A stretch of 64,000 nucleotides of DNA from an uncultured Myxococcales bacterium (GTDB taxonomy: Bacteria > Myxococcota > UBA4151), in contig CAXGWI010000001.1 of assembly GCA_964013405.1 (NCBI GenBank), positions 50,402-114,401 on the forward strand, written 5' to 3'. Both the position numbers and the translations under genes were made by a program. Under the pieces are notes generated by a model that was not told the origin of the DNA, did not search any database, and worked only from the letters and a program-made list of their open reading frames with translations. Numbering within the stretch: position 1 is the first letter of the stretch; each line of letters begins with the position of its first letter. Below, piece after piece: positions 1 to 57,134 of this stretch.

Positions 1-2027
1 TCCAAGGCCGGCCGGCCTTGGGGCAGGATACGCAGACTCGTTGGTTTCGGCGAATCGACCGTGCCCCCCACCGCATCCATCTGCAGCGTGATGTAATCCT
101 GTCGAGCCCGTTGGTTCTGAGACATTTCTACCGTTCGTACCCGACACGCGCGCTGACCGGCCGGGACTCGGCCTACAACGAACTCAAGTTCATTCAGGGA
201 GCCATGGGCACTGACCGTCCGGCCATGAACACGGTAGAGATCACTGTCCGATGGATTGACCACACAGAGTTTTAGGTCGACCGACTCACCGGCCTGCACC
301 TTGCCTTGCACGGAAAGTTCGGCCCGAGCCTTCACCCCTTGGCCACGATCCGACGGGGACGGAGGCTCCCAGGCGATCTCTTGTGACTTAAGGGCCGCGG
401 TAATCAGCGCATCCTGTTCGAGACGAACACGATCGAGTTCTTGGGTGATTCGACGGTAGAAGGTGTCGGCCTTCGCTGCACCGCCGGTGAGGAGCAGGCG
501 GCGAGCCAAGCGAATCTCGAAATCCTCGGCGATCTCCCCAGCATTCTCCTGCCGTGTCTGCTCATCCTGATCCATCGCTTCTTCGGCGAGGTAGGCGATG
601 GTGGACCGCACCCGCTGGGCCTGGGTCGAGCCGTGGTCGAGACTGCGATTTAAGTCGGACTCACGGGTCGTCTCCGGGGGCCTTAGGGCGATGAAATCTT
701 CCTCAACTTGAGCGGCCTGTAGACGGATATCGGGGACGATACCCGTCCCTTGGATGCTCACGCCTCCAGGTGTCAGGTAGTGGGCGATGGTTAACTTCAG
801 CGCGGTCCCTTCCACCTTGGTCCGACGGGGATGGAATGGAATGATCGTCTGGACGGAGCCCTTGCCGAAGCTCTGCTGCCCGAGCAGCAGCGCCCGCCCA
901 TGATTTCGAAGTGCGCCGGCCACGATCTCTGAGGCGGAGGCCGACCCAGCGCTCAAGAGGACAACGATGGGCAGATCTGTAAGCGAGCCCGCCTCGTGGG
1001 CATAGCGGGGCTGGCTCATCTGGTCGCCAAAACCTTCAGTGGTGACGATGACTCCCTTGTTCAAGAAGAGGTCCGAAATACTCACTGCCTGCTCAAGAAG
1101 CCCACCTGGGTTATCCCGGAGGTCGAGAATCAGGCCCTTGGTCGCGCCGCCTTGGCGCATCTTCGCCAGGGCTGTGACCGCCTCATCGGTGGTGTTTTCT
1201 CGAAAACTCTTCAGTCGCAGATAACCGACACCATCCCCGAGAATCTTATGGCTGACGGAGCGCACTTTGATAATTCGGCGAGTCAGTTCTTTCTCGATGG
1301 GCCGCTGGGCACCTTTACGACGAATCTGAATCGTCACCTTGGTTCCAGGCCTGCCACGCAACAGCCCGACCGCCTCTTCGAGGGTCATGTTTTCCGTCGT
1401 CTCATCGTTGATTTGAATGATCTGATCACGGGCCCGAATACCGGCCTTCGACGCCGGGGTATCTGGTATGGGCGAGATGACAGTAAGCCAACCGTCTCGT
1501 TGCCCAATCACAATCCCCAAGCCACCAAACTGCCCTTGGGTCGATACCTTCATCTCTTCGTACTCTTGTGGAGAGAACATGACAGAGTGAGGGTCGAGCG
1601 TACCAAGCATGCCATTGATGGCCTTGAGCTCGACGTCTTGAGCTTTGACATCCTCAGGCAGGTGGAGCGCGACGTAATCCAGAGAGCGCTTCAAGGTCAT
1701 GAAGGCTTCCCAGATGGACGCCATGCGTTCCACATTCAACGTCAAGGGAGGCGCACCAACCATCTGCAAATAGACCTGGCCAGGCAACTTCGACTCGTCA
1801 AAAACCAACTCTGGGACCACAGACTCCACACTGCGGAGCGAATGGGTCACCATTTCCTTCGGCTGAAATCGAGCCGGCTTCACGTAGCCCTTGGTCAGTT
1901 CGAGGATCGCCCAACTCAACTGCTCGGTCGCGCGCAGTTGCCGAGCCTCCTCCTGCTGAGACATGACCCCAAGAACAGGGTTCAGGCTGTTGGCGACGAG
2001 GTAGACCAGAAAGAATGAGTTAAGCAT
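1..2027 (-). CDS. S41-family carboxyl-terminal processing protease (Ctp/Prc-like); the C-terminus runs off the window edge
   Basis: Manual translation of the minus strand from the ATG at 2027-2025 gives MLNSFFLVYLVANSL... with a PDZ region. The S41 catalytic motifs GLILDLRDNPGG and SASASEIVAGAL...GKGSVQ are present. The frame stays open to position 1. It is absent from the ORF track only because no stop codon falls inside the window. The plus-strand ORF 996..2018 is its shadow. Confidence 0.85.
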   Translation of the reverse strand, partial: MLNSFFLVYLVANSLNPVLGVMSQQEEARQLRATEQLSWAILELTKGYVKPARFQPKEMVTHSLRSVESVVPELVFDESKLPGQVYLQMVGAPPLTLNVERMASIWEAFMTLKRSLDYVALHLPEDVKAQDVELKAINGMLGTLDPHSVMFSPQEYEEMKVSTQGQFGGLGIVIGQRDGWLTVISPIPDTPASKAGIRARDQIIQINDETTENMTLEEAVGLLRGRPGTKVTIQIRRKGAQRPIEKELTRRIIKVRSVSHKILGDGVGYLRLKSFRENTTDEAVTALAKMRQGGATKGLILDLRDNPGGLLEQAVSISDLFLNKGVIVTTEGFGDQMSQPRYAHEAGSLTDLPIVVLLSAGSASASEIVAGALRNHGRALLLGQQSFGKGSVQTIIPFHPRRTKVEGTALKLTIAHYLTPGGVSIQGTGIVPDIRLQAAQVEEDFIALRPPETTRESDLNRSLDHGSTQAQRVRSTIAYLAEEAMDQDEQTRQENAGEIAEDFEIRLARRLLLTGGAAKADTFYRRITQELDRVRLEQDALITAALKSQEIAWEPPSPSDRGQGVKARAELSVQGKVQAGESVDLKLCVVNPSDSDLYRVHGRTVSAHGSLNELEFVVGRVPAGQRACRVRTVEMSQNQRARQDYITLQMDAVGGTVDSPKPTSLRILPQGRPAL

Positions 2028-2034
2028 GGGATCT

Positions 2035-2691
2035 CTAAGCTGGAGCCGGAGGAGGGTCACCGAGAATAGCAGTCGTGAAGCGCTCCGCACCAGCTTCATC
2101 CACCTCACCGGACTGAAAGGCGGTGTCGAGCAATCCAGAGAGTTTCTCCAGATCAACTCCTTTAACGACTGGAACCGAAATAGATTCTGGCAGACCTGCT
2201 TCGGCATCGGCCAGACTCATGAGCCAACGGTGCACATCATCCAATGCCAGTTCCGTCTCGGGCTCCAGCCAGCGATTCAAACGTTGCACAAGGGCTTCGA
2301 CGCTCGACGCCTGTTGCCAAAGACTAAATGGGTGAATGGCGAGTTCTTGCATTTCGGGTTCTGGGTCGGCTGCGAGGGCCACATCGACCAACTCGGCATG
2401 GAGCAGACCGAAGCCGATACCAAGCCGCATCAGCGGACCTAGAATGAAGTGATCCCGATCTTCATGGCGGATGAGACGATTAACGACCTCGAAGAAGTCC
2501 TGCCCGTGGAGACGATCCGCCCAGGCCTTCCCCATGGGCTTCGGATCGAGTCGAGGACAATTGAGCAGTAAAACACCGAGACAGGCCATATCCGGGTTGC
2601 GCTTCAAAGCCTCAGCGGTCCGGCCACCGGCCGGCAAGACCTTTAAGTTGGCCTGTAGCAGGGCCAAATGAGCCAGCGGGTGAAGGGACAC
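2035..2691 (-). CDS. hypothetical acidic protein; start uncertain (GTG at 2691 or ATG at 2589)
   Basis: The ORF 2035..2937 runs on the minus strand. Its N-terminal 60-115 codons overlap the aldolase gene, so the real start must be internal. The C-terminal part (…DPEPEMQELAIHPFSLWQQ…GEVDEAGAERF…) has plausible protein composition. Only 7 nt separate its stop from the downstream protease ATG. Confidence 0.45.
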   Translation of the reverse strand: MSLHPLAHLALLQANLKVLPAGGRTAEALKRNPDMACLGVLLLNCPRLDPKPMGKAWADRLHGQDFFEVVNRLIRHEDRDHFILGPLMRLGIGFGLLHAELVDVALAADPEPEMQELAIHPFSLWQQASSVEALVQRLNRWLEPETELALDDVHRWLMSLADAEAGLPESISVPVVKGVDLEKLSGLLDTAFQSGEVDEAGAERFTTAILGDPPPAPA

Positions 2692-2746
2692 GAATAGCCT
2701 CTCTCCGTAGGAGTCTAGTCCCAAGGCGCCGAACTCGGCAAGATTT

Positions 2747-3397
2747 CTAGGGCAAAAGTGACGGCGCTGCGAGACCCGCGCGCCGATGCTTATCCGATAA
2801 TGCCTCGATCTCCTCGGGTGGCAACCGGGTTGGTCCGCCCAAAGGAACCGACCGCAGCGCGATCGAAGCCAGGTGCTCAAGAAGTTCCATCCGAGCCAGT
2901 GCCATGGTGAGATCAAGGCCCCAGGCGAGCGGACCATGACCCATTAGGAGGGCTGCATTGGCTGCGCGAGCAGCATCGTGGACAGCCTGGCTCATGCCCT
3001 CTGCGCCCGGTCGATGATAAGGAACGTGGGCGATCTTCGGCCCGAGACTCACGATGGCCTCCGGCATAAAATCGATCGCCAGTTCACGACCACTCACAGC
3101 GAAAGCCGTCGATGAAGGCGCATGACAATGGATCACCGCCCCCATCCCGGGTCGAGCTTGAAACACGGCCCGATGCAACTGCCATTCACTAAACACGCGA
3201 TGCCGCCCCGAGAGTACCTTCCCGTCGATATCGATCACCAGCAGATCGGCCGAGCCGATGTCCCCTTTGCGGAAAGCGGTCGGCGTGACCAGAAATCGAT
3301 TGCCTGGGAGGCGCATGCTGATGTTGCCGTCATGATTGGCAACAAAGCCTTTTTGGTCGAGCCATTGGCAGGCCCTCAGCAACTCCTCAGCGCTCAC
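2747..3397 (-). CDS. class II aldolase/adducin-family protein (fuculose-/ribulose-phosphate aldolase-like) with a C-terminal extension
   Basis: A 216-aa protein. The motifs GFVANHDGNISMR, VIHCHAPSSTAF and MGHGPLAWG are typical of the class II aldolase fold and its His metal ligands. Its ATG overlaps the stop of the upstream BMC-P gene (ATGA). Confidence 0.85.
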   Translation of the reverse strand: MSAEELLRACQWLDQKGFVANHDGNISMRLPGNRFLVTPTAFRKGDIGSADLLVIDIDGKVLSGRHRVFSEWQLHRAVFQARPGMGAVIHCHAPSSTAFAVSGRELAIDFMPEAIVSLGPKIAHVPYHRPGAEGMSQAVHDAARAANAALLMGHGPLAWGLDLTMALARMELLEHLASIALRSVPLGGPTRLPPEEIEALSDKHRRAGLAAPSLLP

Positions 3398-3645
3398 GCG
3401 GTCGTCACCTCGTCGACGATCCCGATGATCAATGAGCGAACAGGGGGCTGCCCCCCCAGGATCTGCCGGACCCCGTTGCCCTCCCGCATCACGAGAACTC
3501 GTTCGCCCGGCGCCGCACCGACGCGATCAACGGCGATCAAGTCTTCGTCGCCATGCTCAGGACGAACCATTTTGATGGGTAAGCCATCGTAGCCAGGATG
3601 GTGCTGATCAGCGGTCACACTGCCGAGGACCTTGGCGATGATCAT
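3394..3645 (-). CDS. bacterial microcompartment vertex protein BMC-P (EutN/CcmL/PduN family), copy 2
   Basis: An internal Met start gives MIIAKVLGSVTADQHHPGYDGLPIKMVRPE…RVLVMREGNGVR…LIIGIVDEV (83 aa). This is a typical Pfam PF03319-like pentamer protein. The ATGA overlap at 3642-3645 with the upstream paralog was verified in the sequence (tcat on the plus strand). Confidence 0.8.
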   Translation of the reverse strand: MIIAKVLGSVTADQHHPGYDGLPIKMVRPEHGDEDLIAVDRVGAAPGERVLVMREGNGVRQILGGQPPVRSLIIGIVDEVTTA

Positions 3646-3917
3646 CCCTCCACCTCCCGGTGTGCATCGTCCACAATACCGATGACGGCCAGATCCACCG
3701 GCACGAAAGTCGGTCGACAACCAAGAGCAGCCTCTCTGCTGCCAACAAGGACCACTCTTTGTCCCAGCGAACTGCTCACCGTATCAACGGCCACCTCGAG
3801 CCCCCCCAAAGGCCTACCGTCATGATCTTCCCGCTGCACCAATCGGAACGTGAAGCCATTCATGGAAGGGAGCTTCCTCGTCGCCACAACGGTCCCTTTG
3901 ATCACACCGAACTGCAT
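3642..3917 (-). CDS. bacterial microcompartment vertex protein BMC-P (EutN/CcmL/PduN family), copy 1
   Basis: MQFGVIKGTVVATRKLPSMNGFTFRLVQ…VVLVGSREAA…AVIGIVDD is the canonical EutN/CcmL N-terminus and length (91 aa). An AGGAG Shine-Dalgarno lies 8 nt upstream, inside the 3' end of the preceding gene. Confidence 0.85.
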   Translation of the reverse strand: MQFGVIKGTVVATRKLPSMNGFTFRLVQREDHDGRPLGGLEVAVDTVSSSLGQRVVLVGSREAALGCRPTFVPVDLAVIGIVDDAHREVEG

Positions 3918-3922
3918 GCAGG

Positions 3923-5899
3923 TTATCTCCTAGGTAACTTCAACGGGATGATAAACACGGCGGGATCACCGGGGAAAGTGGGGAAACGCCAACGCTGAGC
4001 CCGATTGATGATACATTTCGTCACCGGCAGGCCTTCGTACACTGGCGTTAATGCCGAGACCGAACTGACCCGCCCCGTGGGCTGGACGGTCAATTCAAGC
4101 TTCAACTCACCGTGCAGGGCCTCTTGTCGTGTCATGGCCCGGGAGGCGCAGTTGTTGAGGGCTTTGATCCCTCGCTTGAAGACCCGATTGATGTCCTCCG
4201 CATCGAGTTCGGACTTTCTTCCCGGTTGCGGTGTCAGTCGGACCTTCGCCAGTGGAATACGGACGGTCCCGAGGGCCTCTTGCAAGGTTGCCATGCGACG
4301 TAGATCGGAGTCACTCACCTTCGCTTTTTGACGAAGTTCCCGCTCCCGTCGAACAGCTGGGTCTTCATCCACCTTGCGCTTCTTCGTCTTTGCGGATTTC
4401 CGACGCCGCTTCGAGGCCGCTTTCTGCTGGGCCTCCGCCGCCCGTTCCTCCTCCTCGATCGCATCCATCTCAGCCTGAATCAGATGCTCTCCCGAAAGGA
4501 ACTGCATCAGGGCCTGGTGGTCTTCCGCAGCAATCGATGTGCCCTTGCGGTATGCGAGCACTTTCGCCGGCTGGGCCGGGTCTCCATAGGTCGTTCGAAT
4601 CGTGTCGACGACCGGCAACTTAATGATGTCGGCCATGGCGATCTCGGCGAGCGCCGAGGAACTGAAAGGCTTGAATGTGGGGTGACCCTGGGGGCAGTCA
4701 AAGTCATCCGCCATGGTCGCTCCGGCATCCGCTCCCGCCGGAGCTAAACTTTCACAGCCTCGGAAATTCGCCGTTCCAATGCGCACCTGAACCAAGTCGC
4801 CGGGGATCGCCTTGAGATCGACGAGGTAGTTTTGCTCCTCAAAGAGTGGGGCCCAGGCCAGGCGTTCTGAAATACCGGCCCCAACCACCATCCTCTCCCG
4901 TAGACTCGCCCCGGCCGCATCGCCAAGAACCAATAGGCGAACGAAGCTGCGCCGGCCAAGTTTGTTGACGCTCTCCACGGTCATGCCTCCTTGGCCAAAG
5001 GGCGAAGGCAACCAGCCCAGCGTCACACTCCCCACGTAGCCAAAGATCATCAGGACCAGGGTCAGAAGAATAATAAGACGACGACGCTTGCCCTGCTCAA
5101 GACCACTGGCCAGCAAAAACATCCGGGTTTCTTCACCGATCGTGTTGCTCGTCGACTCACTCAGGTCGACATGGTCCGATGCGACGGCAGGGCTGGGCTC
5201 CTGTTCAGCGTGCCCACCGAACGGTGTCGATGGCCCCGTTGCGGACGGTTGCGCCTCGACCACCGGCTGCACACCACTGACCCCTGGCTCTTGAACGGGC
5301 GCAGACGAGGAAGCCTCGCCACGGGATTCACGCCGACGGGGAGCCGGGGATGAAGCCTCTGCTGCCCGTTGGTCCGGTGGCCCATCATAGGTGGTTGCAT
5401 CGGGATCGATGGGCCCCGAAGACTCGACCTGGGCCTGACTACCTTGACCGGCCTCGTCGACGAAGACGGCGAGTTCGGGCAGATCTCGAACGGGGCGCCA
5501 ATCCCCCATGCCCGCGTGCCAGGCGTGATCCGTCGGACGAAAACGCCCCTCGCGCAAGGCCTGGGCAACCTCCGACTCCCCCATAGGGCCGTAACGCTGC
5601 CCCTCCCGAGCCAGGTACCACTTCTTAGGGACGGGACTTTCATCAGCCCCCGACGAGTTACGAGAGAGAAAGGCCCGGAGATCGTGGGCAGAGATGCTGT
5701 CCATCGAGCCCATCGACCGGGCCGGGTCACGGACGACCATGATCTCCTGACAGGCCCGGCAACGGATTTTGAGGATCCGCCCCCGAACTGTATCGTCGGA
5801 GATGCTGTATTTTGCGCCGCAGTGCTCGCAGCGAAACTTCACGTGGCGTGCACCCCAGTCATCCGTCCATCTTATAGAGGAGATGGACGGAACAAACAA
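3923..5899 (-). CDS. GltJ/AgmX-like protein with an N-terminal MJ0042-type zinc ribbon, a GYF-like domain, a single TM helix, a K/R-rich linker and an AgmX/PglI-type C-terminal domain
   Basis: The zinc ribbon is FRCEHCGAKY…IRCRACQ. The GYF-like region is WYLAREGQRYGPMGESEVAQALREGRF…HAWHAGMGDWRPV. The TM helix is LIILLTLVLMIFGYVGSVTLGWL. The C-terminal domain reads …NNCASRAMTRQEALHGELKLELTVQPTGRVS…CIINRAQRWRFPTF. This architecture matches the myxobacterial gliding-motility protein GltJ (AgmX). Confidence 0.7.
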   Translation of the reverse strand: MFVPSISSIRWTDDWGARHVKFRCEHCGAKYSISDDTVRGRILKIRCRACQEIMVVRDPARSMGSMDSISAHDLRAFLSRNSSGADESPVPKKWYLAREGQRYGPMGESEVAQALREGRFRPTDHAWHAGMGDWRPVRDLPELAVFVDEAGQGSQAQVESSGPIDPDATTYDGPPDQRAAEASSPAPRRRESRGEASSSAPVQEPGVSGVQPVVEAQPSATGPSTPFGGHAEQEPSPAVASDHVDLSESTSNTIGEETRMFLLASGLEQGKRRRLIILLTLVLMIFGYVGSVTLGWLPSPFGQGGMTVESVNKLGRRSFVRLLVLGDAAGASLRERMVVGAGISERLAWAPLFEEQNYLVDLKAIPGDLVQVRIGTANFRGCESLAPAGADAGATMADDFDCPQGHPTFKPFSSSALAEIAMADIIKLPVVDTIRTTYGDPAQPAKVLAYRKGTSIAAEDHQALMQFLSGEHLIQAEMDAIEEEERAAEAQQKAASKRRRKSAKTKKRKVDEDPAVRRERELRQKAKVSDSDLRRMATLQEALGTVRIPLAKVRLTPQPGRKSELDAEDINRVFKRGIKALNNCASRAMTRQEALHGELKLELTVQPTGRVSSVSALTPVYEGLPVTKCIINRAQRWRFPTFPGDPAVFIIPLKLPRR

Positions 5900-5953
5900 A
5901 AGGGTTTGTCCTGTAAGGATGTTTTAGGGGACATCAGGCCTTAGGGAGGTGGT
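5900..5953. promoter_or_regulatory. 54-bp divergent intergenic region, expected to hold promoters for the gltJ-like/BMC operon (minus) and lptF (plus)
   Basis: This is the only non-coding gap bounding the 5' ends of both operons. No motif was confirmed. Confidence 0.3.
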
Positions 5954-7015
5954 TTGCTACTCGTCTGGACCCTAGCTCGGCAAATGGCCGCCAACGCATT
6001 ACTCAGCTTCGCCCTGCTGTTCGTCACCGTCCTGAGCAGTCAGTTGTTGCGTCTCGGTCCCCTCGTCCTCGCCGGCATGAGCGATCCGCTCGGCTTCCTC
6101 AGCGTCCTTCTCGACACCCTGCCGCGGATTCTGGCCATGGCCCTTCCCTTCTCTCTTCCTCTGGGCGCATTCCTCACCGTCGACCGCTTGGAGCGGCGTT
6201 CCTTGGGCGACGCCATTCGAGCCCTCGGCATGCCAGCGACCCGAGTCTGGCTGCGGGCCGGTTGGCTGACAGGTCTTGGCGGTGCACTCTTGATCATCCC
6301 CTTCGCCTGGCTCCTCGAAGCAGAAGCAGCCAAGGCTTTTCCTCGGCACGCCCTTACCCTGGCTCAGGAGTCCGTCATCGAACGTATTCAGCCGGGCCAA
6401 GTGGTGCCGATGACCGATGAGCTTTCCTTCTACGCTGGACCTCGAAACCAGCGAGGGGATTTCGACCATCTCACGGTCTTGTTTGAAGAGAACGTGCTCG
6501 CCGGTCGAGATGGGCGGCTGGAAGGATTAGGGACCCAGGCCCTTGGTCTCTACTTGGCCGAAGCCGAACTCTGGCAAAGTACCAATCAAGGCCCGGTCCG
6601 CTCCACGGCGCGAGAGGTCCATGTTCGGCTGCCCGTCAGTCGCAATATCATTCGAAACATGAGTTTCTTTGCCGATCGGGAACGCCTCTCCCTCGCCCAG
6701 TTGATTAAAAGTCCGAGTACGGACCGGGAGGGCCGACGGCGCCAACACCTCGGATGGACGCGGCTTTTGGCGCCCTTGTTCACCTTAATACTGCCCGTCT
6801 TTAGTATTGCCTGTGCCCTTCTCGCACCGCCAAGGGCCCGTATCCTCTGTGGTCTAGCTGCCACGGTCTTGGTGATCGGGGTGCACCTGGCTAGCGAGTC
6901 CTTAACCCTTGCAGGGTGGCCAGCCCCGCTGGTGGCGGGCTTGGCCCCCTTGATCGCCCTGATACCCATTCTTCTAGCGCTCCGTGCTGAAGACCGTCGA
7001 GGTGTCCAAGGATGA
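5954..7015 (+). CDS. LptF/LptG-family LPS export permease (YjgP/YjgQ)
   Basis: A 353-aa protein with an N-terminal TM bundle, a periplasmic beta-jellyroll-like middle region and C-terminal TM helices. It is paired with a paralog immediately downstream through an ATGA overlap at 7012-7015. Confidence 0.7.
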   Translation: MLLVWTLARQMAANALLSFALLFVTVLSSQLLRLGPLVLAGMSDPLGFLSVLLDTLPRILAMALPFSLPLGAFLTVDRLERRSLGDAIRALGMPATRVWLRAGWLTGLGGALLIIPFAWLLEAEAAKAFPRHALTLAQESVIERIQPGQVVPMTDELSFYAGPRNQRGDFDHLTVLFEENVLAGRDGRLEGLGTQALGLYLAEAELWQSTNQGPVRSTAREVHVRLPVSRNIIRNMSFFADRERLSLAQLIKSPSTDREGRRRQHLGWTRLLAPLFTLILPVFSIACALLAPPRARILCGLAATVLVIGVHLASESLTLAGWPAPLVAGLAPLIALIPILLALRAEDRRGVQG

Positions 7016-8085
7016 CGCACTTGATGATCCCGCTGGCGAGCCACCTAACGAGAGTCCTCACGGTCACGCTCCTGATTTTAATCTCCGGTTGGCTCGTGGT
7101 GGATGCAGCCGAGATGGGACGCCATATGGTTGAAGTCGACGGGGCCGTCATCTTCGATCTCTACAGTTATCGCCTCCCGGTCTTCCTCCATCGACTCACC
7201 CCAGTGGCGATGGTCCTTGCCGCGGGCCTGACACTTGGCACCTGGGCCAGTCGACGCTACCTCCAAGCATCGGCTGCCCTCGGCGCGGAGATTCATGCGC
7301 CTGCGCTCCTCGTCACCCTCCTCCTCAGCCCAGTAGCCATTTTTTGGGGCTGGGCCGGAACCGACGCGATCCCCCGTATGCACAAACAGCAGAACGAGAT
7401 CCTCTTCGAAAAGTTTCGGATTGGCGGTATCCACTACTGGAACCTGCACCAGCCGACCGGGCTCTTGCTCGAGCCCCCATGGCTCGTCCGCTTCAAACCG
7501 GAAGGTCCCACGCGGATTCGGGACGTCGAAGGCGTTCGACTGCGACGGGGCGAAGTTCTCGGCCTTGTTTTCGCACCCACTGCAGAACGAATCGGCCGCG
7601 ACTGGATCGCGCCGGAGATCACCCATTCTCACTATCGCAAAGGAAAGCTGATCCAGCGGGTTCGCTCCAATGGAACATTGCCCTTTTTAGATACAGGAAT
7701 GAGCGTGAGTCACGCCCTTGGCTTTCCCGAGGAGTTCGGCAGCGACGAACTCAGCGAAGTGGCCCACCGAGCGAAATTGGCAGGTAGTGACCCCCGGGCC
7801 TACAACTACGAGGCCTGGCGGCGCCCCTCGAGCGTCCTCTTGCTCCTTTTAACCATGCTCACTGCCGCGATGATCGGCGCCCGAGTCCCCACCGGTAGTG
7901 GTTTCAATCTCATCCTCGCCCGCTCCGCCATGTGTGCTGCATTTTATGAGGCCTTCGCATTTTTCGGCGCGGCCTTGGGCTTGATCATTCCCCGGGGCAG
8001 AGAAGCCATCGCTGCTTGGCTGCCGATCTTTCTTATTGCCATATTTGCGAGTTGGGCTTCGGCCCGACTCGGACGGGCCCGCTGA
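7012..8085 (+). CDS. LptF/LptG-family LPS export permease, second paralog
   Basis: A 357-aa protein with the same topology as the upstream gene. The tandem lptF-lptG arrangement is typical. Confidence 0.7.
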   Translation: MTHLMIPLASHLTRVLTVTLLILISGWLVVDAAEMGRHMVEVDGAVIFDLYSYRLPVFLHRLTPVAMVLAAGLTLGTWASRRYLQASAALGAEIHAPALLVTLLLSPVAIFWGWAGTDAIPRMHKQQNEILFEKFRIGGIHYWNLHQPTGLLLEPPWLVRFKPEGPTRIRDVEGVRLRRGEVLGLVFAPTAERIGRDWIAPEITHSHYRKGKLIQRVRSNGTLPFLDTGMSVSHALGFPEEFGSDELSEVAHRAKLAGSDPRAYNYEAWRRPSSVLLLLLTMLTAAMIGARVPTGSGFNLILARSAMCAAFYEAFAFFGAALGLIIPRGREAIAAWLPIFLIAIFASWASARLGRAR

Positions 8086-9884
8086 TGTTCGCCGGCGAGA
8101 CATTTGGCGAGTACCGAATCATGGGCAAGTTGGCCAATGGTGGCATGGCATCGGTCTACCTCGCCAGGCACCTGGCCGACGCGACGGCGACGCCGGTCGC
8201 CCTGAAGGTGATGCTTCCGCACCTCCTTGCGAATCCCGACTACCGAGAAATGTTTACGCGGGAAGAGGCAATGGGTCGCCTCCTGACCCATCCCAACGTG
8301 GTCCGCGTGATCGAGCGGGTTGAGTCGGCCGATGGGCAAGCTCTTGCGATGGAATTTCTCGATGGACGCAATTTAATCCAAATCGTTAGTGCGGCGAGGC
8401 GTCGGTCTCAGGCCATTTCTTTCCCCGTCGTCGCCCGAGTCATCGCTGCCGTGTCAAGGGCCTTGGAGCGCGGCTGGACGGCTGTTGACGCCGAAGGACA
8501 ACCCATTCGAGTCATTCACCGGGACGTCAGTCCGGAAAATGTCCTGCTTACCTACGACGGGCAGGTCAAACTGATCGATTTCGGGATTGCAAAACAGACC
8601 CATCGCCCAAGCAACACCCGGGCGGGCCAACTCAAAGGCAAATACAGCTACATGAGTCCAGAGCAGGTCCGGGGCGAGACGCTAGACCACCGTAGTGATC
8701 AGTTCAGCTTGAGCGTCCTACATTACATTCTCCTCACCGGAAGAAAGCCATTTGTCGCCCCCAACGAGGTTGAACTCCTCAAGCTGATTCTTTCAGAAGA
8801 CCCGGTACCACCAAGCCGCATCGATCCCACAGTCCCCGGTGTACTCGAAGAGGTCGCCCTGCGCGGACTCCGAAAGGCGCCGGCTGCCCGTTTCCCCAGT
8901 CATGGCTCCGTCGCCGACGTCCTCGAAGATCGCTACCTGAGCAAATATCCAGCCAAAGAAGCTGATATCGCCCGGCTCATGGAGAGCCTCTTTCCCGCAG
9001 GGAAGGACGCAGTACGACTACGAATCCAGCGCTTGATCGATGCTGAGCAAGAGGCGACGGTCACCGGAATCCGCCCGCCCGTGCCCCCCTTGGAACAGGT
9101 CGAGGACGAATTACTCGAAGACAGTGCCACGATTCTCGAGGGGGCGATTCCGGACCAGCCTACCGCCAACTGGCGGACCAGTTCCAGTTCGGCTCCGCTG
9201 GCCCAAGACCAGACCGAAATCTCGGTCCCCGAAGAGCAGGCGACCGTGCTCACACCCGCTGCTGTTGATGTGATCCCGCCACCGCGACGGCCGGCCACCC
9301 ATCACCGGGGTTCTCATCATGTCACCGGCTCCCACTACAACCTCAGCCCCTCTTCATTCTCGCCGGCCACCGCGGGCCTGGCCCTCTTAGCGGTCGCCGC
9401 ACTGCTCGCACTCTACTTCTCGTTCTCCGAAGATCGCAGTGAGGTGGCGACGGTGCAGAGTGGCCAAGGTACGCTCATCGTTCGGGCCTCCACCGGACAG
9501 GCCGAGGTCCGAATCAACGCGGAGCTCATCGGCTCGACCCCAATTGAAAAGCAACTGCGAGCGGGACGAGTCAGTGTCCTCTGTAGTTTTCGATCCCGAG
9601 AGGTCGTTCTGAAGAAACGAGTCGACGTCATGGCCGGACAACGAACTGAGACGCTCTGCCAGCTCGGCCACGCTGATTTAGAGGTCAATGGGCCAAAAGG
9701 CTGGCAGGTTCAGGTCGATGACAAACCCCTCCAGTCCCCACCCGTGCGCCTTTCCAAACTTCTCGAGGGAAGCCACCGGATCGAGTGGGTCCGGCAGACC
9801 GATGGTCACAAGGAGGTACGCCGCTTACGACTGCAAAGGGGCGAGCGAAAAGTCGTTGATGGCTTTGAGGGCTTAGATCGATGA
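8085..9884 (+). CDS. Hanks-type Ser/Thr protein kinase with a C-terminal TM helix and an extracytoplasmic domain
   Basis: Kinase motifs present are GKLANGGMASVY…ALKV, HRDVSPENVLL, DFGIAK and SYMSPEQ. The start is taken as the MFAGETFGEYRI Met at 8085 (TGATG overlap with the lptG stop) rather than the track start at 8016. A TM segment lies near LALLAVAALLALYF. Confidence 0.85.
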   Translation: MFAGETFGEYRIMGKLANGGMASVYLARHLADATATPVALKVMLPHLLANPDYREMFTREEAMGRLLTHPNVVRVIERVESADGQALAMEFLDGRNLIQIVSAARRRSQAISFPVVARVIAAVSRALERGWTAVDAEGQPIRVIHRDVSPENVLLTYDGQVKLIDFGIAKQTHRPSNTRAGQLKGKYSYMSPEQVRGETLDHRSDQFSLSVLHYILLTGRKPFVAPNEVELLKLILSEDPVPPSRIDPTVPGVLEEVALRGLRKAPAARFPSHGSVADVLEDRYLSKYPAKEADIARLMESLFPAGKDAVRLRIQRLIDAEQEATVTGIRPPVPPLEQVEDELLEDSATILEGAIPDQPTANWRTSSSSAPLAQDQTEISVPEEQATVLTPAAVDVIPPPRRPATHHRGSHHVTGSHYNLSPSSFSPATAGLALLAVAALLALYFSFSEDRSEVATVQSGQGTLIVRASTGQAEVRINAELIGSTPIEKQLRAGRVSVLCSFRSREVVLKKRVDVMAGQRTETLCQLGHADLEVNGPKGWQVQVDDKPLQSPPVRLSKLLEGSHRIEWVRQTDGHKEVRRLRLQRGERKVVDGFEGLDR

Positions 9885-13175: not shown

Positions 13176-14444
13176 TTGGAGGCGCTCATGGAGTGGGACA
13201 GCAAACTCTTCTTGGTCACTCGGAACTTGGTGCATCGAACGGCTGCCCGCCTGGATATGGACCCAAACGCCGCCCACCGACTCCTGCAGCCGGATCGGGC
13301 GCTGATCGTCTCGGTGCCGGTCCGGCGAGACGATGGAACTGTCGAGACGTACACCGGTTACCGCGTCCAGCACAACGACACCCGGGGCCCCTTTAAAGGC
13401 GGGCTTCGCTACCACCCAGATGTCGATCTCGGTGAGGTGACTGCCCTGGCGACTTTGATGACCTTTAAGTGTGCTGTCGTTGGCGTCCCCCTCGGCGGCG
13501 CAAAAGGAGGAATCGCTTGTGACCCGAACAAATTCAGTCGGGCTGAATTGCAGCGACTGACAAGGCGGTTCACAACCGAGATCATCAACTTCATCGGACC
13601 CGATGTTGATATCCCTGCCCCGGATATGGGCACCAGTCCCCAGGTCATGGCTTGGATCATGGATACCTACAGTCAGATGAAGGGCCATACCTGCAATGGT
13701 GTGGTGACGGGCAAACCCATCGAATTGGGTGGGAGTCAGGGGCGACTTCAGGCGACCGGCCGCGGCCTGGTATACTGCGTCGTCGCCGCGGCAAAGCACT
13801 TGGGGATCGATCTGAAGGAATGCACGGCAAGTATTCAAGGCTACGGCAATGTGGGGCACTGGGCGGGCCGTGAGTTAGAGCGAAACGGCGTCAAGATTCT
13901 CGCACTGAGCGACATGACAGGGGCCATCTACAACCCCAACGGACTCGATCTCAAAGAGACACGAAAGTACGTCCTTAAGCACGGTGGTCTTGCAGGCTAT
14001 CCCAAGGCGGAGCCGATCGATCCCGATGAAATCCTCACCCTCAAAGCGGATATTGTCGTGCCGGCAGCCATCGGTAGTGTGATCGACGCTGAGGTCGCCA
14101 ACAAACTCCAGTGCAGAATTCTGGCCGAGGGGGCCAATGGCCCGGTGACGACAGAGGGCAACGAGGTCCTCCTCAAACGACAAGATGAGATTTTTGTGAT
14201 CCCCGACATTCTCGCCAATGCCGGTGGCGTCACGGTCAGCTACTTCGAATGGGTGCAGGGAACGCAAAACTTTTTCTGGAGCGCCAAAGAGGTCAATGAC
14301 CGACTACGGCAGATCATGCAGAAGGCCTTTAAGGAAATCCTGCAGACCCACTTAAATGAAGATATGGACATGCGTACGGCCTCGATGGCCGTCGGGATGA
14401 GAAAAGTCACCGATACGATGAAACTCCGAGGGCTCTTCCCCTAA
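13176..14444 (+). CDS. gdhA: NAD(P)-dependent glutamate dehydrogenase (Glu/Leu/Phe/Val dehydrogenase family)
   Basis: GdhA signatures are GGLRYHP, VPLGGAKGG and GYGNVG…. The protein is 422 aa. Confidence 0.9.
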   Translation: MEALMEWDSKLFLVTRNLVHRTAARLDMDPNAAHRLLQPDRALIVSVPVRRDDGTVETYTGYRVQHNDTRGPFKGGLRYHPDVDLGEVTALATLMTFKCAVVGVPLGGAKGGIACDPNKFSRAELQRLTRRFTTEIINFIGPDVDIPAPDMGTSPQVMAWIMDTYSQMKGHTCNGVVTGKPIELGGSQGRLQATGRGLVYCVVAAAKHLGIDLKECTASIQGYGNVGHWAGRELERNGVKILALSDMTGAIYNPNGLDLKETRKYVLKHGGLAGYPKAEPIDPDEILTLKADIVVPAAIGSVIDAEVANKLQCRILAEGANGPVTTEGNEVLLKRQDEIFVIPDILANAGGVTVSYFEWVQGTQNFFWSAKEVNDRLRQIMQKAFKEILQTHLNEDMDMRTASMAVGMRKVTDTMKLRGLFP

Positions 14445-15673
14445 GGCTTGATTTCTTTGCGGGCCGGCACAACCAATCCAATCGCCGCCCAAAGCAAGCC
14501 CCCTAATGGGAACCTCCATAAAGGACGAACACCCATGTTCGCGGCCAAAAAGTGACGGAATAATTGGGGGCTTCGACTCAATGCGCGAATGGCGAGGCGT
14601 CGTAAAAAGGGCCAGCGCGCCAAAATCAGCGCCGCCCTCAAAGTGGGCAACGTGCTGTGAAAGGTTTCGATGAGCCCTTGCCGTATGGGCTGAAGGGCCT
14701 GCTGGTCGAGTTCACCACAAGTGATGCGCTGGGGAAGCTCATCAGCGAGAAGCATGGCCTGATCAAAGCTCACTGAAAGTCCTTCGCCGGTGATCCCATC
14801 GCCGTAGCCGAGACTATCCCCAATCAAGAGGACCCGGTCTGGCCAAGGCCCAAGGGCTTGCCAAGCTAAGGGCCCCGTCCCTTGAAACCGTGAGTCGGAC
14901 TCCTTGCCATCCAATCGGCGAGCAAGGCCCGGAAACCGACTCATCAGGGCTTTGAATGGCTCCGGTGACTGAAGTTCCGCCGGCTCATTCGTTTGATCCC
15001 AAAGTAAAGCGATCTCTACACGCCCATCCCCCGATGGCGTGACATAAGCCTCCATCCCCTTCGACCACCAAACTTCCACATCATCGCTCCAACGCGAACA
15101 GCGGAAGTGCTGCCGGGCACCAAAACGCCGACGCTTAAAGGGTCGACCTGGTCGTAAGCTGAGTTGCTCCAGTAATCCTGTGTTTCGACCGGCGGCAAAC
15201 ACGCAGACTTCACCCTCATGGGCCCCTGCCCGGCTCACGACACGTACACCTTCAGCCTGAATCGTAATTGTTTTCACCCGGGCATGGTCGGTCAGTACAA
15301 CGCCGAGTTCACGCGCTCTCTCGTGCAGTGCGCGGCTAAGGGCCTGGCGGCGAACACCCATCCCGAGTCCGGCAGGGAATACCCCTCTTGCGGTCCGGCC
15401 ATCATCATCCCAGTAGCGAATCCCTTCGAAGGGCGAACAGTCCTCAGGGCCCAAATAGTCAGTGACCCCAAGAGATTCCAGACAGGCCCAGCCGGTGGGC
15501 ATGATGCCCTCGCCGCAAACCCGGTCACGGGGCCAGGTTTTTCCCTCTAAGACCTCGACCGTTAGCCCCTTAAGACGCAAGGCGATCGCTGCGGCCAAAC
15601 CAGCGGGCCCCCCTCCAATCACGAGCACCTGGATCGATGACCCCATGCTCAGGACGCTGCCCGTGGGAGCCAC
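14441..15673 (-). CDS. FAD-dependent oxidoreductase, probably a hydroxylase (geranylgeranyl-reductase-like family); last gene of the type III PKS cluster
   Basis: A Rossmann motif VLVIGGGPAGLAAA is present. The alternative start MGSS is at 15646. Position and family resemble the flavoprotein hydroxylase of srs/ftp-type clusters. Confidence 0.75.
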   Translation of the reverse strand: MAPTGSVLSMGSSIQVLVIGGGPAGLAAAIALRLKGLTVEVLEGKTWPRDRVCGEGIMPTGWACLESLGVTDYLGPEDCSPFEGIRYWDDDGRTARGVFPAGLGMGVRRQALSRALHERARELGVVLTDHARVKTITIQAEGVRVVSRAGAHEGEVCVFAAGRNTGLLEQLSLRPGRPFKRRRFGARQHFRCSRWSDDVEVWWSKGMEAYVTPSGDGRVEIALLWDQTNEPAELQSPEPFKALMSRFPGLARRLDGKESDSRFQGTGPLAWQALGPWPDRVLLIGDSLGYGDGITGEGLSVSFDQAMLLADELPQRITCGELDQQALQPIRQGLIETFHSTLPTLRAALILARWPFLRRLAIRALSRSPQLFRHFLAANMGVRPLWRFPLGGLLWAAIGLVVPARKEIKP

Positions 15674-17382
15674 CGTGCCATCCAGCCCTTGGCGAATTCC
15701 GTCGCAATACCCAATGCCGTCATCTTCTTTGGAGGCAGTAAGAGCCCCTGCAGTAACCGACGGCGAGCTTCACTGCGACGGATCTTCCCCGACGACGTCC
15801 GGGGCAAGGTACCGGGTGCCAATATCAGCACACCCGCTACCGTCAGTCCGGAATGCTCCTGAACGGCTTCTCGACAGATCTGAATGAGTCCTTCGTCCTC
15901 GCTATTGTGTGACTCGGCGAGCAAATAAAGTGCTTCAGTATCGCCGGTTTCGACGGGCAAAGAGACTGCTGCCCAACAGCCAGTCCGGAGCCCTTCCACC
16001 CCATCCAGGCCTTGTTCGATAACGCTGGGATCGTAATTCCGCCCCCGCAAGATAATCACGTCCTTCGCCCGCCCACACAAAAAGAGGTCACCCGCCAACA
16101 CAAAGCCACGATCCCCTGTATCGAGCCAGTCATCCTGCAAGACGGCAGTGGTCTCCTCAGGCTGATCCAAGTAGCCAGCCATCACGCCATCCCCCCGAAC
16201 CCAGACCTGGCCCACCTGAGCTTCGGGCACACATGCGCCGGAAGGGTCACGAATCTCGACCTCAGTCCCAGCAAGAGGACGCCCCAGTGAACTCAGCGGC
16301 AGCCCTTCCTCGGCCAACTGAGCCTGACCGTCTTCTTCCAGGCTGGCCGGATCCACATGAATGATTCGTCGCTCCACTTCGATCGGGGCGAAAGTCACAC
16401 CTAGCGTCGCTTCGGCCAATCCGTAAACGGGGGTCAGGGCGCTCGACTGGAAACCCACCGGGCCAAATCGAGCACAGAATCGGTCCAGGGTTTTTGGATG
16501 AACCGGCTCGGCACCACAAAGGGCCACCGTCCAAGAGCTCAAATCCAAGCCCTCTAAGTCTTCGTCGCCAATCCGCTCAGCACAGAGACCGAACGCAAAA
16601 TTCGGCGCCACCGAGATGGTCGCCCGAGACTCAGTCAGGGCTTCGAGCCAACCGACCGGACGGGCGATAAACCGCTCTGGATTGATTAAGGTCAGCGGCC
16701 CTTTTGCCATAATGGCGGTGAGCAGGCAGCCGATCAAACCCATATCATGATAGAGCGGCAACCAACTGACCCCAGAGTGGTTTGAGGGGTCGCCCGGAAA
16801 GGTTGACATGATGGCTTGGCAGTTTCGGATCATGTTGTTGTGGGTCAGTGCAACCGGCTTAGGGCGCCCCGTCGACCCTGAACTAAATTGAACTGCGGCA
16901 AGAACTTCAGGGCCCTCACTACACCGGTAAACCTCCTCGGATCTCCGGCACCAATCAACGGTTTGGACACCGTGGGGGACACCGGCGCGCTGACCCGGAA
17001 CACTCACCAATGGAAGCAAGCGGCGATCGGACAAGACGATCTGAACCCGAGCTTCCCGCATCATCTGCGCCGTCCGCTCCTTCCATTCGTCAATGCGTCC
17101 AAGACGAACTGGCGGGTACATAGCGCAGGGCACCGCACCGGCTAGAACAGCGCCGAAGAACCCGTGATAAAAGTCGGGCCCAGTGGGCAATACCAGGCCA
17201 ACTCGATCCCCAGGCTGAAGCCCTAAAGAGACCAGTGTTCCCGCCACGCGAGCAGCCTGAGTGGCTAGCTCGCCATAGGTGAACTTCTGGTGACGCCCGA
17301 GTCCCGACCAGAAGGTGACCCCGAGACCCTCGTGCTCAGCTGCTTTCAAAAACGCAGCACCAAGGGTGTGATCTATCGTCAT
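15649..17382 (-). CDS. fatty-acyl-AMP ligase (FAAL; AMP-dependent synthetase/ligase)
   Basis: The AMP-binding signature FSSGSTGRPKPV is present, with a FAAL-type insertion region and a C-terminal SSGKIRR. A GGGAGG Shine-Dalgarno lies upstream of the ATG at 17382. Confidence 0.85.
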   Translation of the reverse strand: MTIDHTLGAAFLKAAEHEGLGVTFWSGLGRHQKFTYGELATQAARVAGTLVSLGLQPGDRVGLVLPTGPDFYHGFFGAVLAGAVPCAMYPPVRLGRIDEWKERTAQMMREARVQIVLSDRRLLPLVSVPGQRAGVPHGVQTVDWCRRSEEVYRCSEGPEVLAAVQFSSGSTGRPKPVALTHNNMIRNCQAIMSTFPGDPSNHSGVSWLPLYHDMGLIGCLLTAIMAKGPLTLINPERFIARPVGWLEALTESRATISVAPNFAFGLCAERIGDEDLEGLDLSSWTVALCGAEPVHPKTLDRFCARFGPVGFQSSALTPVYGLAEATLGVTFAPIEVERRIIHVDPASLEEDGQAQLAEEGLPLSSLGRPLAGTEVEIRDPSGACVPEAQVGQVWVRGDGVMAGYLDQPEETTAVLQDDWLDTGDRGFVLAGDLFLCGRAKDVIILRGRNYDPSVIEQGLDGVEGLRTGCWAAVSLPVETGDTEALYLLAESHNSEDEGLIQICREAVQEHSGLTVAGVLILAPGTLPRTSSGKIRRSEARRRLLQGLLLPPKKMTALGIATEFAKGWMARWLPRAAS

Positions 17383-17656
17383 AGAGCCTCCCTCAGATTC
17401 AGGTCACCAAGGACGGGATCATCACTTTGCCCATCGACCGCAACAACTCTTGCAGGCTCCATTAAGCCAACCCACTCCGTATCCACAGAAGAAAGTAATC
17501 AATATGGTCGTTATTGTCACCAAAATTCGACCAAATCGAACACTTGTTCATTTGAGACCCAAAGAGCAACGAGCACGTCGGATGGACGACGACTGGCTGG
17601 GTTTCCGCAGGTCGCTCACCCACGTCCGCTCGCCCTAGAATGAGTGCTCATGCTTC
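17383..17656. promoter_or_regulatory. AT-rich roughly 275-bp intergenic island inside the PKS cluster; probable internal promoter or regulatory leader for the FAAL-oxidoreductase genes
   Basis: It is locally low in GC (…gaagaaagtaatcaatatggtcgttattgtcaccaaaattcgaccaaatcgaac…) in an otherwise roughly 65% GC context. It lies between the ACP stop and the FAAL start. Confidence 0.35.
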
Positions 17657-17938
17657 TCAGGCCAACGAGTCGAGGGCCTGGGCCACCAGTTCTGCGACTT
17701 CACGCAGCGTTTCAGGCGGCTGATCCGGTGGTTCGTTCAAGAAGACTTGGAAGTGATTTTCCACCTCAAGGGCGAAGTTGAGCAGGCCCATACTATCGAG
17801 ACCGAGATCAGCTTGGAGGCGTGTTGACGGTGCCCAGTCTCCTGGAAGTTCGCAGTGATCCCGCAGGATCATGACCAGGTCTGAATGGATTTCGGCGAGG
17901 CGCTCAGGGGATGAACCGCCCCCTGTTTTCAAAGGCAT
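17657..17938 (-). CDS. stand-alone acyl carrier protein
   Basis: The phosphopantetheine attachment motif DLGLDSMGLLNFALEVE sits about 45 aa after the Met of MPLKTGGG…. The track ORF begins earlier (18007), but that N-terminus would overlap the methyltransferase gene. Confidence 0.7.
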   Translation of the reverse strand: MPLKTGGGSSPERLAEIHSDLVMILRDHCELPGDWAPSTRLQADLGLDSMGLLNFALEVENHFQVFLNEPPDQPPETLREVAELVAQALDSLA

Positions 17939-18464
17939 CGAGATAGCCTCCTGACTGCTCAAGGGCAGCCTCTTCTCGCCCGATGCGATGCCGCAAAAGG
18001 AGCCCATTGGCTAGGCTGAATACGAGGGCTGTCATCCAAGCTCCGCCCAGTAATGGCAGGGCTAAAATCTCCAGTACCACGCCCAGATAGTTGGGGTGCC
18101 GAATCCACCGATAAAGCCCACCCACTTGGGGCGGTGCCTCGGGCAGGATCATGATCGTGACTGTCCACCGCGGCCCAAGGGTCGAAATGGCCTCCCAACG
18201 CAAAGCTTGGCCCACAAGGAGTGCGAAGGCGCTGCTATAGACGAGCCAAGATGGTAGTTCAGTGGCAAAGAACGTGGCCTCGATGACGGCAGCGACCAAC
18301 CACAGGCTATGCAAGGCCCGCATCCAGGGCATCTGCTCTGGTGCGACTTCATAGCCTCCAGAGGCCACGATTTGGGCCTGATGCGTTGCGCTCAGGCGTA
18401 GTTCGGACAATCGCTGTAATCCAACCAGGCCAAGCAGTGCGAGGTAAGCCAGAAGAGGTGACAT
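17904..18464 (-). CDS. isoprenylcysteine carboxyl methyltransferase (ICMT)-family membrane methyltransferase (SrsB/FtpB-like)
   Basis: The RHPNYLG motif is present in a polytopic membrane protein. Its start MSPLLAYL at 18464 shares 1 nt with the PKS stop (18464-18466). Confidence 0.8.
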   Translation of the reverse strand: MSPLLAYLALLGLVGLQRLSELRLSATHQAQIVASGGYEVAPEQMPWMRALHSLWLVAAVIEATFFATELPSWLVYSSAFALLVGQALRWEAISTLGPRWTVTIMILPEAPPQVGGLYRWIRHPNYLGVVLEILALPLLGGAWMTALVFSLANGLLLRHRIGREEAALEQSGGYLDAFENRGRFIP

Positions 18465-19528
18465 CAGCCCACGCGCTCCAAGAGATTCAGCTCGGCACAA
18501 AAAGCCGGTCCCATCGCCGCCATCAGCCCCCGTTGTCCCGGGGGTGGCAAGGCTTTCAGCAATTCATGAAGAACGAACAAAACAGAGGTCGAACTCATGT
18601 TCCCATAGGTGGCCAGACTATCCCAACTCGCCTGCAGGTCAGCCTGACTCAAGCCCAGAGCTTCCTGCATGGCACCAAGGACCTTGGGGCCCCCGGGATG
18701 GGCCACGTAGAAGTCTAAGGCATCTGCGCCAAGGTCAGCATCCCGAAGCAGACCTTCCACCGCAGAGGGAAGCTCCTCTTTCACAAGACTTGGAACCTCA
18801 GGGGATAAGACAACCTTAAAGCCACTATCGACAACATCCCAGCCCATGATCCGCTCGGTCTGCGGGAAGAAGACTGAGCGCGGATGCGACCAGGCCAGTG
18901 GTGCACTCGCCGCAAGCGGATGCTCATCACCAACCATCAGCACGGCCGCACAGCCGTCACCGAAGAGGCCACTGGCGATGATATTGGCCACACTCAGGTC
19001 TTCCCGCTGTAGCGTCAGCGAACAAAGTTCAACGGAGAGGAGAATGCCAGCCTCGCCGGGGTGTCCCCGCAGATAATCCCCCAGCCGGTTCACGCCAGCA
19101 CAGCCTGCGAGACAACCAAGGCCGAACAGGGGCACTCGTTTGGTCGCTGGCGAAAACTCCAGCCGATTCATCACCCGCGCCTCAAGACTCGGGACGGCGA
19201 TCCCCGTGACCGTGGTGCTGATCACGATCGAAATCTCGTCCGGTGCCAACCCGGCCCGGGCCAGCAGGTCCTGAATCGCCGCCTCTGCCATGTCTGTCGC
19301 CACTCGGATCCACGCATCGTTATGGGCGCCAAAGCCATCGAGCGACTCGTAGGCTTCGATGGGCAGCGCAAGATGGCGGCCGCCGACCAGAACATTTCGT
19401 TGAAACTGTTCGATCCGCCCCGGGTTGTAGTAGCGCTCGCCCCAACGCTGAAGGAGGGCAGCGATGAGTTCATCTTGGCTGTATTCATGGGGCGCTAAGG
19501 CCGTTGCCGTCGAATGAATCCGGACCAT
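18464..19528 (-). CDS. type III polyketide synthase (chalcone/stilbene synthase family; alkylresorcinol/alkylpyrone synthase-like)
   Basis: The catalytic Cys context is GCLAGCAGVNRL. Also present are HPGGPKVL and YGNMSSTSVLFVL (the His/Asn triad region). The protein is 354 aa. Confidence 0.9.
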   Translation of the reverse strand: MVRIHSTATALAPHEYSQDELIAALLQRWGERYYNPGRIEQFQRNVLVGGRHLALPIEAYESLDGFGAHNDAWIRVATDMAEAAIQDLLARAGLAPDEISIVISTTVTGIAVPSLEARVMNRLEFSPATKRVPLFGLGCLAGCAGVNRLGDYLRGHPGEAGILLSVELCSLTLQREDLSVANIIASGLFGDGCAAVLMVGDEHPLAASAPLAWSHPRSVFFPQTERIMGWDVVDSGFKVVLSPEVPSLVKEELPSAVEGLLRDADLGADALDFYVAHPGGPKVLGAMQEALGLSQADLQASWDSLATYGNMSSTSVLFVLHELLKALPPPGQRGLMAAMGPAFCAELNLLERVG

Positions 19529-54878: not shown

Positions 54879-54908
54879 TAAAGCTGGGCCGGGGGGAAGC
54901 CTTGGGGC

Positions 54909-57125: not shown

Positions 57126-57134
57126 GGTCCCATA

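Follow-up and report, generated by a model that had tools for sequence, protein, structure and literature searches.

A probable satellite operon of a Haliangium ochraceum-type bacterial microcompartment in an uncultured marine myxobacterium

The shell of the Haliangium ochraceum-type (HO) bacterial microcompartment (BMC) is the main structural and engineering model for BMCs. The natural function of the organelle is still termed enigmatic, and an SPU-like catabolism of nucleic-acid-derived sugars has been proposed. The catalogue of Sutter et al. 2021 (Nat Commun 12:3809, PMC8217296) lists 41 HO loci, mostly from Deltaproteobacteria (Supplementary Data 2). The main locus of type I, which includes that of H. 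ochraceum, encodes only shell proteins and an aldehyde dehydrogenase (AldDh). Its standard satellite consists of two genes for vertex proteins (BMC-P) and one for an aldolase of the PF00596 family, the latter being assigned to a satellite in 24 of the 30 type I loci. In the HO type, a set of three vertex paralogues, the "BMC-P triplet", is divided between main and satellite loci, and a locus counts as a satellite when its genome also has a main locus (PMC8217296). Here, a three-gene arrangement of this kind (the triad) is described on the minus strand of a 64,000-nt stretch of DNA from an uncultured Myxococcales bacterium (contig CAXGWI010000001.1; the whole stretch is hereafter called the window). 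By analogy with the catalogued loci, it is read, with a probability of roughly 0.8, as a satellite operon of a type I HO BMC in an uncultured marine myxobacterium.

The first gene of the triad (3642..3917) encodes BMC-P A, a 91-aa EutN/CcmL-family vertex (pentamer) protein that matches PF03319 with 76.2 bits (E=2.9e-21; domain calls were made with Pfam gathering thresholds, 25 bits for PF03319). It is followed by the gene for a second vertex protein of the same family, BMC-P B (3394..3645; 83 aa from its ATG; PF03319 65.1 bits, E=8.5e-18), and by that for a class II (metal-dependent, FucA-like) aldolase-family enzyme of 216 aa (2747..3397; PF00596 152 bits, E=2.9e-44). A and B each harbor a single PF03319 domain, spanning residues 1-83 and 1-78, respectively, on the 83-position model, and their family membership predicts that both act as vertex-capping pentamers. 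The initial annotation had placed the three open reading frames (ORFs) at these positions and had assigned the two small proteins to this family. The positions stand, all three genes have strong Pfam matches, and the small proteins score 76 and 65 bits against the cutoff of 25.

The stop codon of A and the start codon of B overlap as ATGA at 3645-3642, as had been claimed and as a direct reading of the bases bears out. At the next junction, where an ATG start and a second ATGA had been reported, the bases show a GTG start for the aldolase and a GTGA overlap with the stop codon of B (3397-3394); the same GTG start is found in the orthologue from the nearest genome (L003). Each of the three genes is preceded by a Shine-Dalgarno-like motif of its own, that of BMC-P A (AGGAGA) lying within the 3′ end of the upstream gene. 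Thus, the triad comprises three separate ORFs and not the fusion of vertex genes to an aldolase described initially. On the basis of sequence, these unfused genes appear to be translationally coupled through their 4-nt overlaps. Such coupling is common in operons and is silent on stoichiometry, so that the "stoichiometric co-translation" formerly read into the overlaps goes further than they allow.

BMC-P A and B are only 33% identical and are therefore old paralogues rather than products of a recent duplication. Each scores 144 bits on the hidden Markov model (HMM) of its own class, compared with 28 bits for A on the B-class HMM and 32 bits for B on the A-class HMM. The best PDB matches of the two proteins are the solved CcmL, EutN, and HO BMC-P structures; among solved structures, A comes closest to CcmL and to the HO shell BMC-P of 5V74, with scores of 43-47 bits. 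Another metagenome contig (L091) carries a canonical main locus in the order BMC-Tdp, BMC-H, BMC-P, AldDh, and BMC-T, where BMC-H and BMC-T denote the hexameric and trimeric facet proteins. The BMC-P of this locus shares 88% identity with its H. ochraceum shell counterpart in PDB 5V74 but only 36% with A or B of the window, and both class HMMs give it about 50 bits. The L091/5V74 type is thus distinct from both A and B, which gives three paralogue classes, consistent with a BMC-P triplet. By this class assignment, A and B are predicted to be two of its three members.

The triad recurs widely. Metagenome contigs were scanned with an alignment of A-type BMC-P, which yielded 80 loci from marine, soil, sediment, and sludge samples, and triad conservation was scored with HMMs made in this analysis in the 67 loci with more than 410 nt downstream. 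The order A-B-aldolase on one strand is found in 67 of 67, B always lies directly after A, and the HO-type BMC-H HMM described below detects no BMC-H in any of them. The arrangement is far beyond chance. Aldolase homologues of 56% and 48% identity also lie behind two BMC-P genes, in one case with wholly different flanks. In this comparative picture, myxobacterial metagenomes from soil, sediment, and the sea alike keep the two satellite vertex paralogues and the aldolase together as a unit that is all but invariant.

Genes for shell facets were sought in the window and around the related loci. With PduA, EutM, CcmK2, and CsoS1A as queries, no tblastn or phmmer score in the window exceeded about 8 bits. 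An HO-type BMC-H HMM was built from more than 100 sequences, and known BMC-H proteins score 98-141 bits on it. Neither the window nor the 533 kb of related loci contained a match to it (best score, 9.5 bits), and there was none within ±10 kb of any related locus. Pfam scans of 46 window ORFs revealed no PF00936, PF00171 (aldehyde dehydrogenase), PF06130 (PduL), or PF01791 (DeoC). The other window ORFs are ordinary chromosomal genes, including those for LptF/G, TsaD, MurJ, MurA, glutamate dehydrogenase, kinases, a type III polyketide synthase cluster, and an FlhA-like protein. The earlier statement that the 64 kb contain no BMC-H or BMC-T gene is therefore upheld by the homology, HMM, and Pfam searches alike. 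With the verified H. ochraceum BMC-H sequence as the query, 7,903 matches were obtained, and the family is large and highly conserved. A 141-aa protein among the BMC-H matches, P0144, contains both PF03319 and PF00936 and is either a BMC-P/BMC-H fusion or a gene-calling artefact.

Several lines of evidence bear on the host. An identical aldolase sequence is present on TARA Oceans metagenome scaffolds in the same gene order. The nearest genome in the species-level collection is the metagenome-assembled genome (MAG) "Myxococcales bacterium EAC29", the aldolase of which is 71% identical and lies in the same synteny. Two loci in all were recovered when this collection was scanned with the aldolase. 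BMC-P A is at most 84% identical to that of the nearest named Myxococcales MAG, and its close relatives (cluster members) are annotated as Myxococcales or Myxococcota bacterium. Further window content is myxobacterial in style, namely, an MJ0042 zinc finger, an AgmX/PglI domain, Ser/Thr kinases, and an FHA-sigma54 activator.

The window thus combines two adjacent BMC-P genes, a following PF00596 aldolase gene, the absence of BMC-H and BMC-T, and a Myxococcota host, which are the features of a type I HO satellite. The two share gene content and order, the lack of facet genes in the locus, the myxobacterial host, two distinct BMC-P paralogues unlike that of the main locus, and an aldolase that often has no C-terminal extension. 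Nothing essential differs, and the window copy comes from an uncultured marine lineage. The presumed partner is an HO type I main locus such as that of L091, with BMC-H, two BMC-T, a third BMC-P, and an AldDh bearing an encapsulation peptide (EP), and the window contains none. On the model of the catalogue, this separate locus would provide the facets (one BMC-H and three BMC-T), the third BMC-P, and an AldDh with an N-terminal EP. The statement of the initial annotation that the facets must be encoded elsewhere is reasonable on this model but too strong as a necessity. The initial annotation had likewise regarded the locus as a satellite of a myxobacterial BMC, and the proximity of a Myxococcales MAG agrees with this. 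The novelty that it implied does not hold, since the triad was catalogued in 2021 (24 of 30 loci); the arrangement is already known, and another satellite copy adds little by itself. Its label "metabolosome of unknown function" is likewise misplaced, as this name belongs to a Clostridium locus in Axen 2014, in which the Haliangium locus is called MIC, the type renamed HO in 2021.

The aldolase aligns with E. coli FucA over its full length. H90, H92, H154, and E71 of the window enzyme align with H92, H94, H155, and E73 of FucA, of which we take the three histidines to be the metal ligands and the glutamate to be the catalytic residue. The metal site and the catalytic glutamate are, as judged from this alignment, conserved in the window aldolase. 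Among 121 aldolase family members, E71, H90, and H92 are invariant, and the position of H154, the third metal ligand, is occupied by histidine in 84 and by asparagine in 37. The asparagine may mark a sub-family with altered metal binding or another reaction. Tyr113 of FucA is replaced by phenylalanine, and the C-terminal Tyr209 is without a counterpart; both tyrosines presumably shape the aldehyde site of FucA. The initial annotation had looked to such an alignment for the substrate. No substrate-specific model is reached. None of the NCBIfam equivalog cutoffs for FucA, RhaD, AraD, MtnB, OtnC, or ribulose-1-phosphate aldolase is attained, the best family scores being at a third to half of the cutoffs: 105 bits against 250 for OtnC (3-oxo-tetronate-4-phosphate decarboxylase), 98 against 300 for the haloarchaeal ribulose-1-phosphate aldolase, 87 against 226 for MtnB, and 72-86 against 264-400 for the FucA models (best, 86 against 264).

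These scores also bear on a different origin for the locus, in which it would be a fragment of a fucose/rhamnose-type BMC (PVM, PVM-like, ACI, or GRM5) with a true L-fuculose/L-rhamnulose-1-phosphate aldolase that makes lactaldehyde. PF00596 is the signature enzyme family of PVM, ACI, and GRM5 and, as here, is found beside BMC-P genes in PVM and ACI loci; ACI combines a BMC-P triplet with an aldolase that has a C-terminal EP. Metagenome pipelines name homologues of the window enzyme "L-fuculose-phosphate aldolase", in line with the FucA alignment and the retained ligands. This origin is nevertheless very improbable, because the enzyme falls far below the FucA cutoffs, matches no fuculose or rhamnulose equivalog model, and lacks both tyrosines. 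In addition, PVM and ACI loci belong to other phyla and encode BMC-H and more of the pathway enzymes together with the aldolase, whereas the host here is a myxobacterium and not a planctomycete, verrucomicrobium, or acidobacterium, and Pfam scans of the window revealed no fucose/rhamnose isomerase, kinase, or lactaldehyde reductase. The PVM/ACI assignment was rejected on the grounds of missing BMC-H, host, and sub-threshold FucA scores.

In the satellite interpretation, the aldolase would split a phosphorylated ketose into dihydroxyacetone phosphate and a short aldehyde, and the AldDh of the main locus would oxidize this aldehyde within the shell. The pathway would probably be part of sugar-phosphate or nucleoside-sugar catabolism. 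Related loci provide some context for the substrate. In three of them, the class II aldolase gene is followed by one for a DeoC (PF01791) aldolase (L008, 12420-13379; L077, about 5700-6643; L020, about 3690-4611). These DeoC aldolases begin with an amphipathic EP-like helix (e.g., MSEAEDLNRVVDEIADRVRRRL), after which comes a Cys-rich linker or motif. In L008, DeoC is followed by an MFS transporter, a DksA/TraR protein, a PGM/PMM-family mutase, and a Bmp-type ABC transporter. DeoC, the mutase, and the Bmp-type transporter point to (deoxy)nucleoside-sugar catabolism, and by analogy, this context suggests a fit with the sugar-phosphate/nucleoside idea proposed for HO BMCs.

The aldolase family occurs in a tailed and a tail-less form. 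A C-terminal extension of 30-60 aa is present in 79 of the 121 family members and ends in a conserved amphipathic motif (e.g., DLAAVVREEIVRALRK), such that, by its sequence, the tail looks like an EP. The aldolases of the window and its close relatives are 216 aa long and end level with the C-terminus of FucA, and the mark of encapsulated BMC cargo, a terminal amphipathic helix set off from the enzyme by a linker, was not found on the window enzyme. Two thirds of the catalogued HO aldolases have no tail, even where the genome encodes a full shell (PMC8217296).

Five points weigh against the satellite interpretation. Satellite status is assigned by analogy, from the 64 kb of this genome that are represented here. 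The likeness to the H. ochraceum satellite is judged by gene content and order, and the BMC-P sequences of that satellite are not among the best 120 matches. The assignment of A and B to the triplet, the satellite members of which belong to the grey and orange BMC-P clades of the catalogue, derives from class HMMs made in this analysis. The tail-less aldolase, with no recognizable EP, may act outside the shell. Lastly, its reaction type is uncertain, given that the OtnC decarboxylase, ribulose-1-phosphate aldolase, and MtnB models score as high as those of FucA. The corresponding genes in H. ochraceum are presumably Hoch_4425/4426 for the tandem satellite BMC-P and Hoch_5812-5816 for the type I main locus.

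The gene immediately upstream of the triad, also on the minus strand, encodes a single-pass membrane protein of 658 aa (3923..5899; start codon uncertain) that matches PF13717, PF14237, and NF033768 (58.6 bits; cutoff 40). From its N-terminus, the protein consists of an MJ0042-type zinc ribbon, a GYF_2 domain, a disordered linker, a transmembrane helix, a Lys/Glu-rich region, and a C-terminal AgmX/PglI (TonB-C-like) domain; a transmembrane scan identified RLIILLTLVLMIFGYVGSV as the sole membrane-spanning helix. A gap of 5 nt separates this zinc-ribbon/GYF (ZnR-GYF) gene from BMC-P A, and its co-transcription with the triad is probable. A scan for promoters and terminators found nothing convincing between the genes, and no RNA family was matched in an Rfam scan of positions 1-9000. 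The 3′ end of the ZnR-GYF gene itself contains a weak terminator-like hairpin with a 5-bp stem and a T-rich tail (3958-3971, minus strand), some 40 nt ahead of BMC-P A, which has probably arisen by chance.

Orthologues of the ZnR-GYF gene lie upstream of the triad in L003, L005, L008, L009, L010, L028, L035, L045, L058, L077, and L090. Among these, L008, L009, L028, L035, L045, L058, L077, and L090 form a second deep clade, the outer flanks of which are unlike those of the window. The distance to BMC-P A ranges from 2 to 84 nt across loci, always on the same strand. The proposal of the initial annotation that the flanking genes place this copy in a different cellular context has some substance in this one respect, as the upstream gene is kept beside the triad in two deep lineages. 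No mention of a GYF protein tied to microcompartments was found in the searched literature or catalogue supplements, and the upstream gene likewise finds no mention in the catalogue text or supplements searched (PMC8217296).

The closest described architecture is that of GltJ from Myxococcus xanthus, in which the cytosolic ZnR-GYF module is a protein-protein interaction switch (Attia et al. 2024, PMC11135422). Both proteins have an N-terminal zinc ribbon, a linker, a GYF domain, one transmembrane helix, and a C-terminal AgmX/PglI-type domain. However, the window protein shares the architecture only. It was ruled out as a GltJ orthologue, as it scores 77 bits on the NF033761 equivalog against a cutoff of 450, the window contains no glt genes, and no glt/agl genes lie nearby.

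The ZnR-GYF gene and the aldolase tail show a complementary distribution, which is the only element of the locus that may be new. It was scored over those loci in which both the upstream gene and the aldolase C-terminus are readable, with dereplication at 95% identity. The GYF gene is present and the tail absent in 20 loci (17 after dereplication), while the reverse is found in 17 loci (14 after dereplication). No locus has both, before or after dereplication, and one has neither (L065; likewise one after dereplication). L065 has an aberrant aldolase C-terminus, probably caused by a frameshift, and fits neither class; this locus aside, the tail-less form is the one preceded by the ZnR-GYF gene.

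The phylogenetic weight of this pattern was assessed with bootstrapped neighbor-joining trees of the aldolase core, BMC-P A, BMC-P B, and the three proteins concatenated. The tailed locus L006, in which the GYF gene is absent, falls with the window clade in the trees of the aldolase core and the concatenated set, at bootstrap values of 95-99%. A split uniting all GYF-linked loci is unsupported (0%) in three of the data sets, namely, the aldolase core, BMC-P B, and the concatenation, and reaches 25% in the fourth, the short alignment of BMC-P A. Given the nesting of L006 and the lack of an all-GYF split, at least two coincident transitions are needed. The complementarity, as seen in distance trees of metagenome fragments with few independent events, is therefore suggestive of a functional link but not conclusive.

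We give about even odds to plain inheritance of gene order, with the ZnR-GYF gene and the triad functionally unrelated and the link between GYF gene and missing tail a phylogenetic coincidence. The pattern requires only some two independent transitions on the tree, and ZnR-GYF membrane proteins are numerous in myxobacteria. A FYDLN_acid gene located upstream is also syntenic within the second GYF clade, so that part of the conservation there is plain synteny. Coincidence is harder to reconcile with a GYF gene that stays on the same strand within 2-84 nt of A despite differing outer flanks, with 17 and 14 dereplicated loci of the two kinds and no mixed ones, and with the well-supported placement of the tailed, GYF-free L006 beside the window clade.

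Alternatively, the ZnR-GYF protein could be a dedicated accessory factor of HO-type BMCs that stands in for the EP of the aldolase, although this is unlikely. Such a protein might recruit the tail-less aldolase or dock the organelle to the inner membrane via the special vertex proteins, and the substitution would explain why the GYF gene and the tail never co-occur. If so, a metabolosome would for the first time have a described partner in the membrane, and the role of BMC-P triplets would become easier to understand. Together with the EP-bearing DeoC loci, the GYF/tail pattern leads to testable hypotheses on cargo loading and on the substrate, which may be nucleoside-derived sugar phosphates.

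The same gene could also serve a module that needs no shell. In that case, A, B, and the tail-less aldolase would make up a small membrane-associated complex organized by the GYF protein, in a genome without a BMC-H shell. The aldolase is tail-less in every GYF-linked locus, and a search for EP-like motifs elsewhere in these loci (in the GYF protein, the BMC-P proteins, and the neighbors) gave only noise. BMC-H is absent from the 64 kb and from ±10 kb of the related loci, and the main locus of this genome is out of sight here. We consider such a module very improbable. Both BMC-P classes are strongly conserved, at 144 bits on their class HMMs. Catalogued satellites co-occur with a main locus, the present one being found in 24 of the 30 type I HO genomes, the missing tail is shared by two thirds of HO aldolases from full-shell genomes, and HO main loci are recorded in several unclassified Myxococcales MAGs in the catalogue tree files (PMC8217296). 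A satellite with its partner at a separate main locus is hence preferred.

The genes on the other side of the triad appear to be particular to the clade of the window. A 218-aa protein of unknown function is encoded 55 nt downstream of the aldolase (2035..2691, minus strand). It has no Pfam or NCBIfam match, and its homologues are found only in the close relatives L001, L002, L003, L012, and L019; it is probably outside the conserved module. Its C-terminal PPPAPA was considered as a proline-rich ligand for the GYF domain and dropped, as this tail is kept only in the closest relative. The next gene (1..2027, minus strand) is the 5′ part of that for a 980-aa PDZ/S41 C-terminal-processing peptidase and runs off the start of the window; its calls and Pfam matches were taken from the identical TARA contig L001. 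The peptidase is also a neighbor in L005 and L010 but not in L006, L008, or L009, which is synteny of its own clade only.

Farther away, an FlhA/SctV-family (FHIPEP) export-gate gene lies beside one for a Wzz/AAA_31 chain-length-determinant-type protein (52719-57194, minus strand), with no other flagellar or injectisome genes in view around it. At 14441-19528 on the same strand, genes for a type III polyketide synthase, an ICMT-family methyltransferase, an AMP-binding (acyl-activating) enzyme, and an FAD-dependent oxidoreductase form a cluster, which we take to resemble the srsABC-type gene sets for phenolic lipids (alkylresorcinols or alkylquinones).

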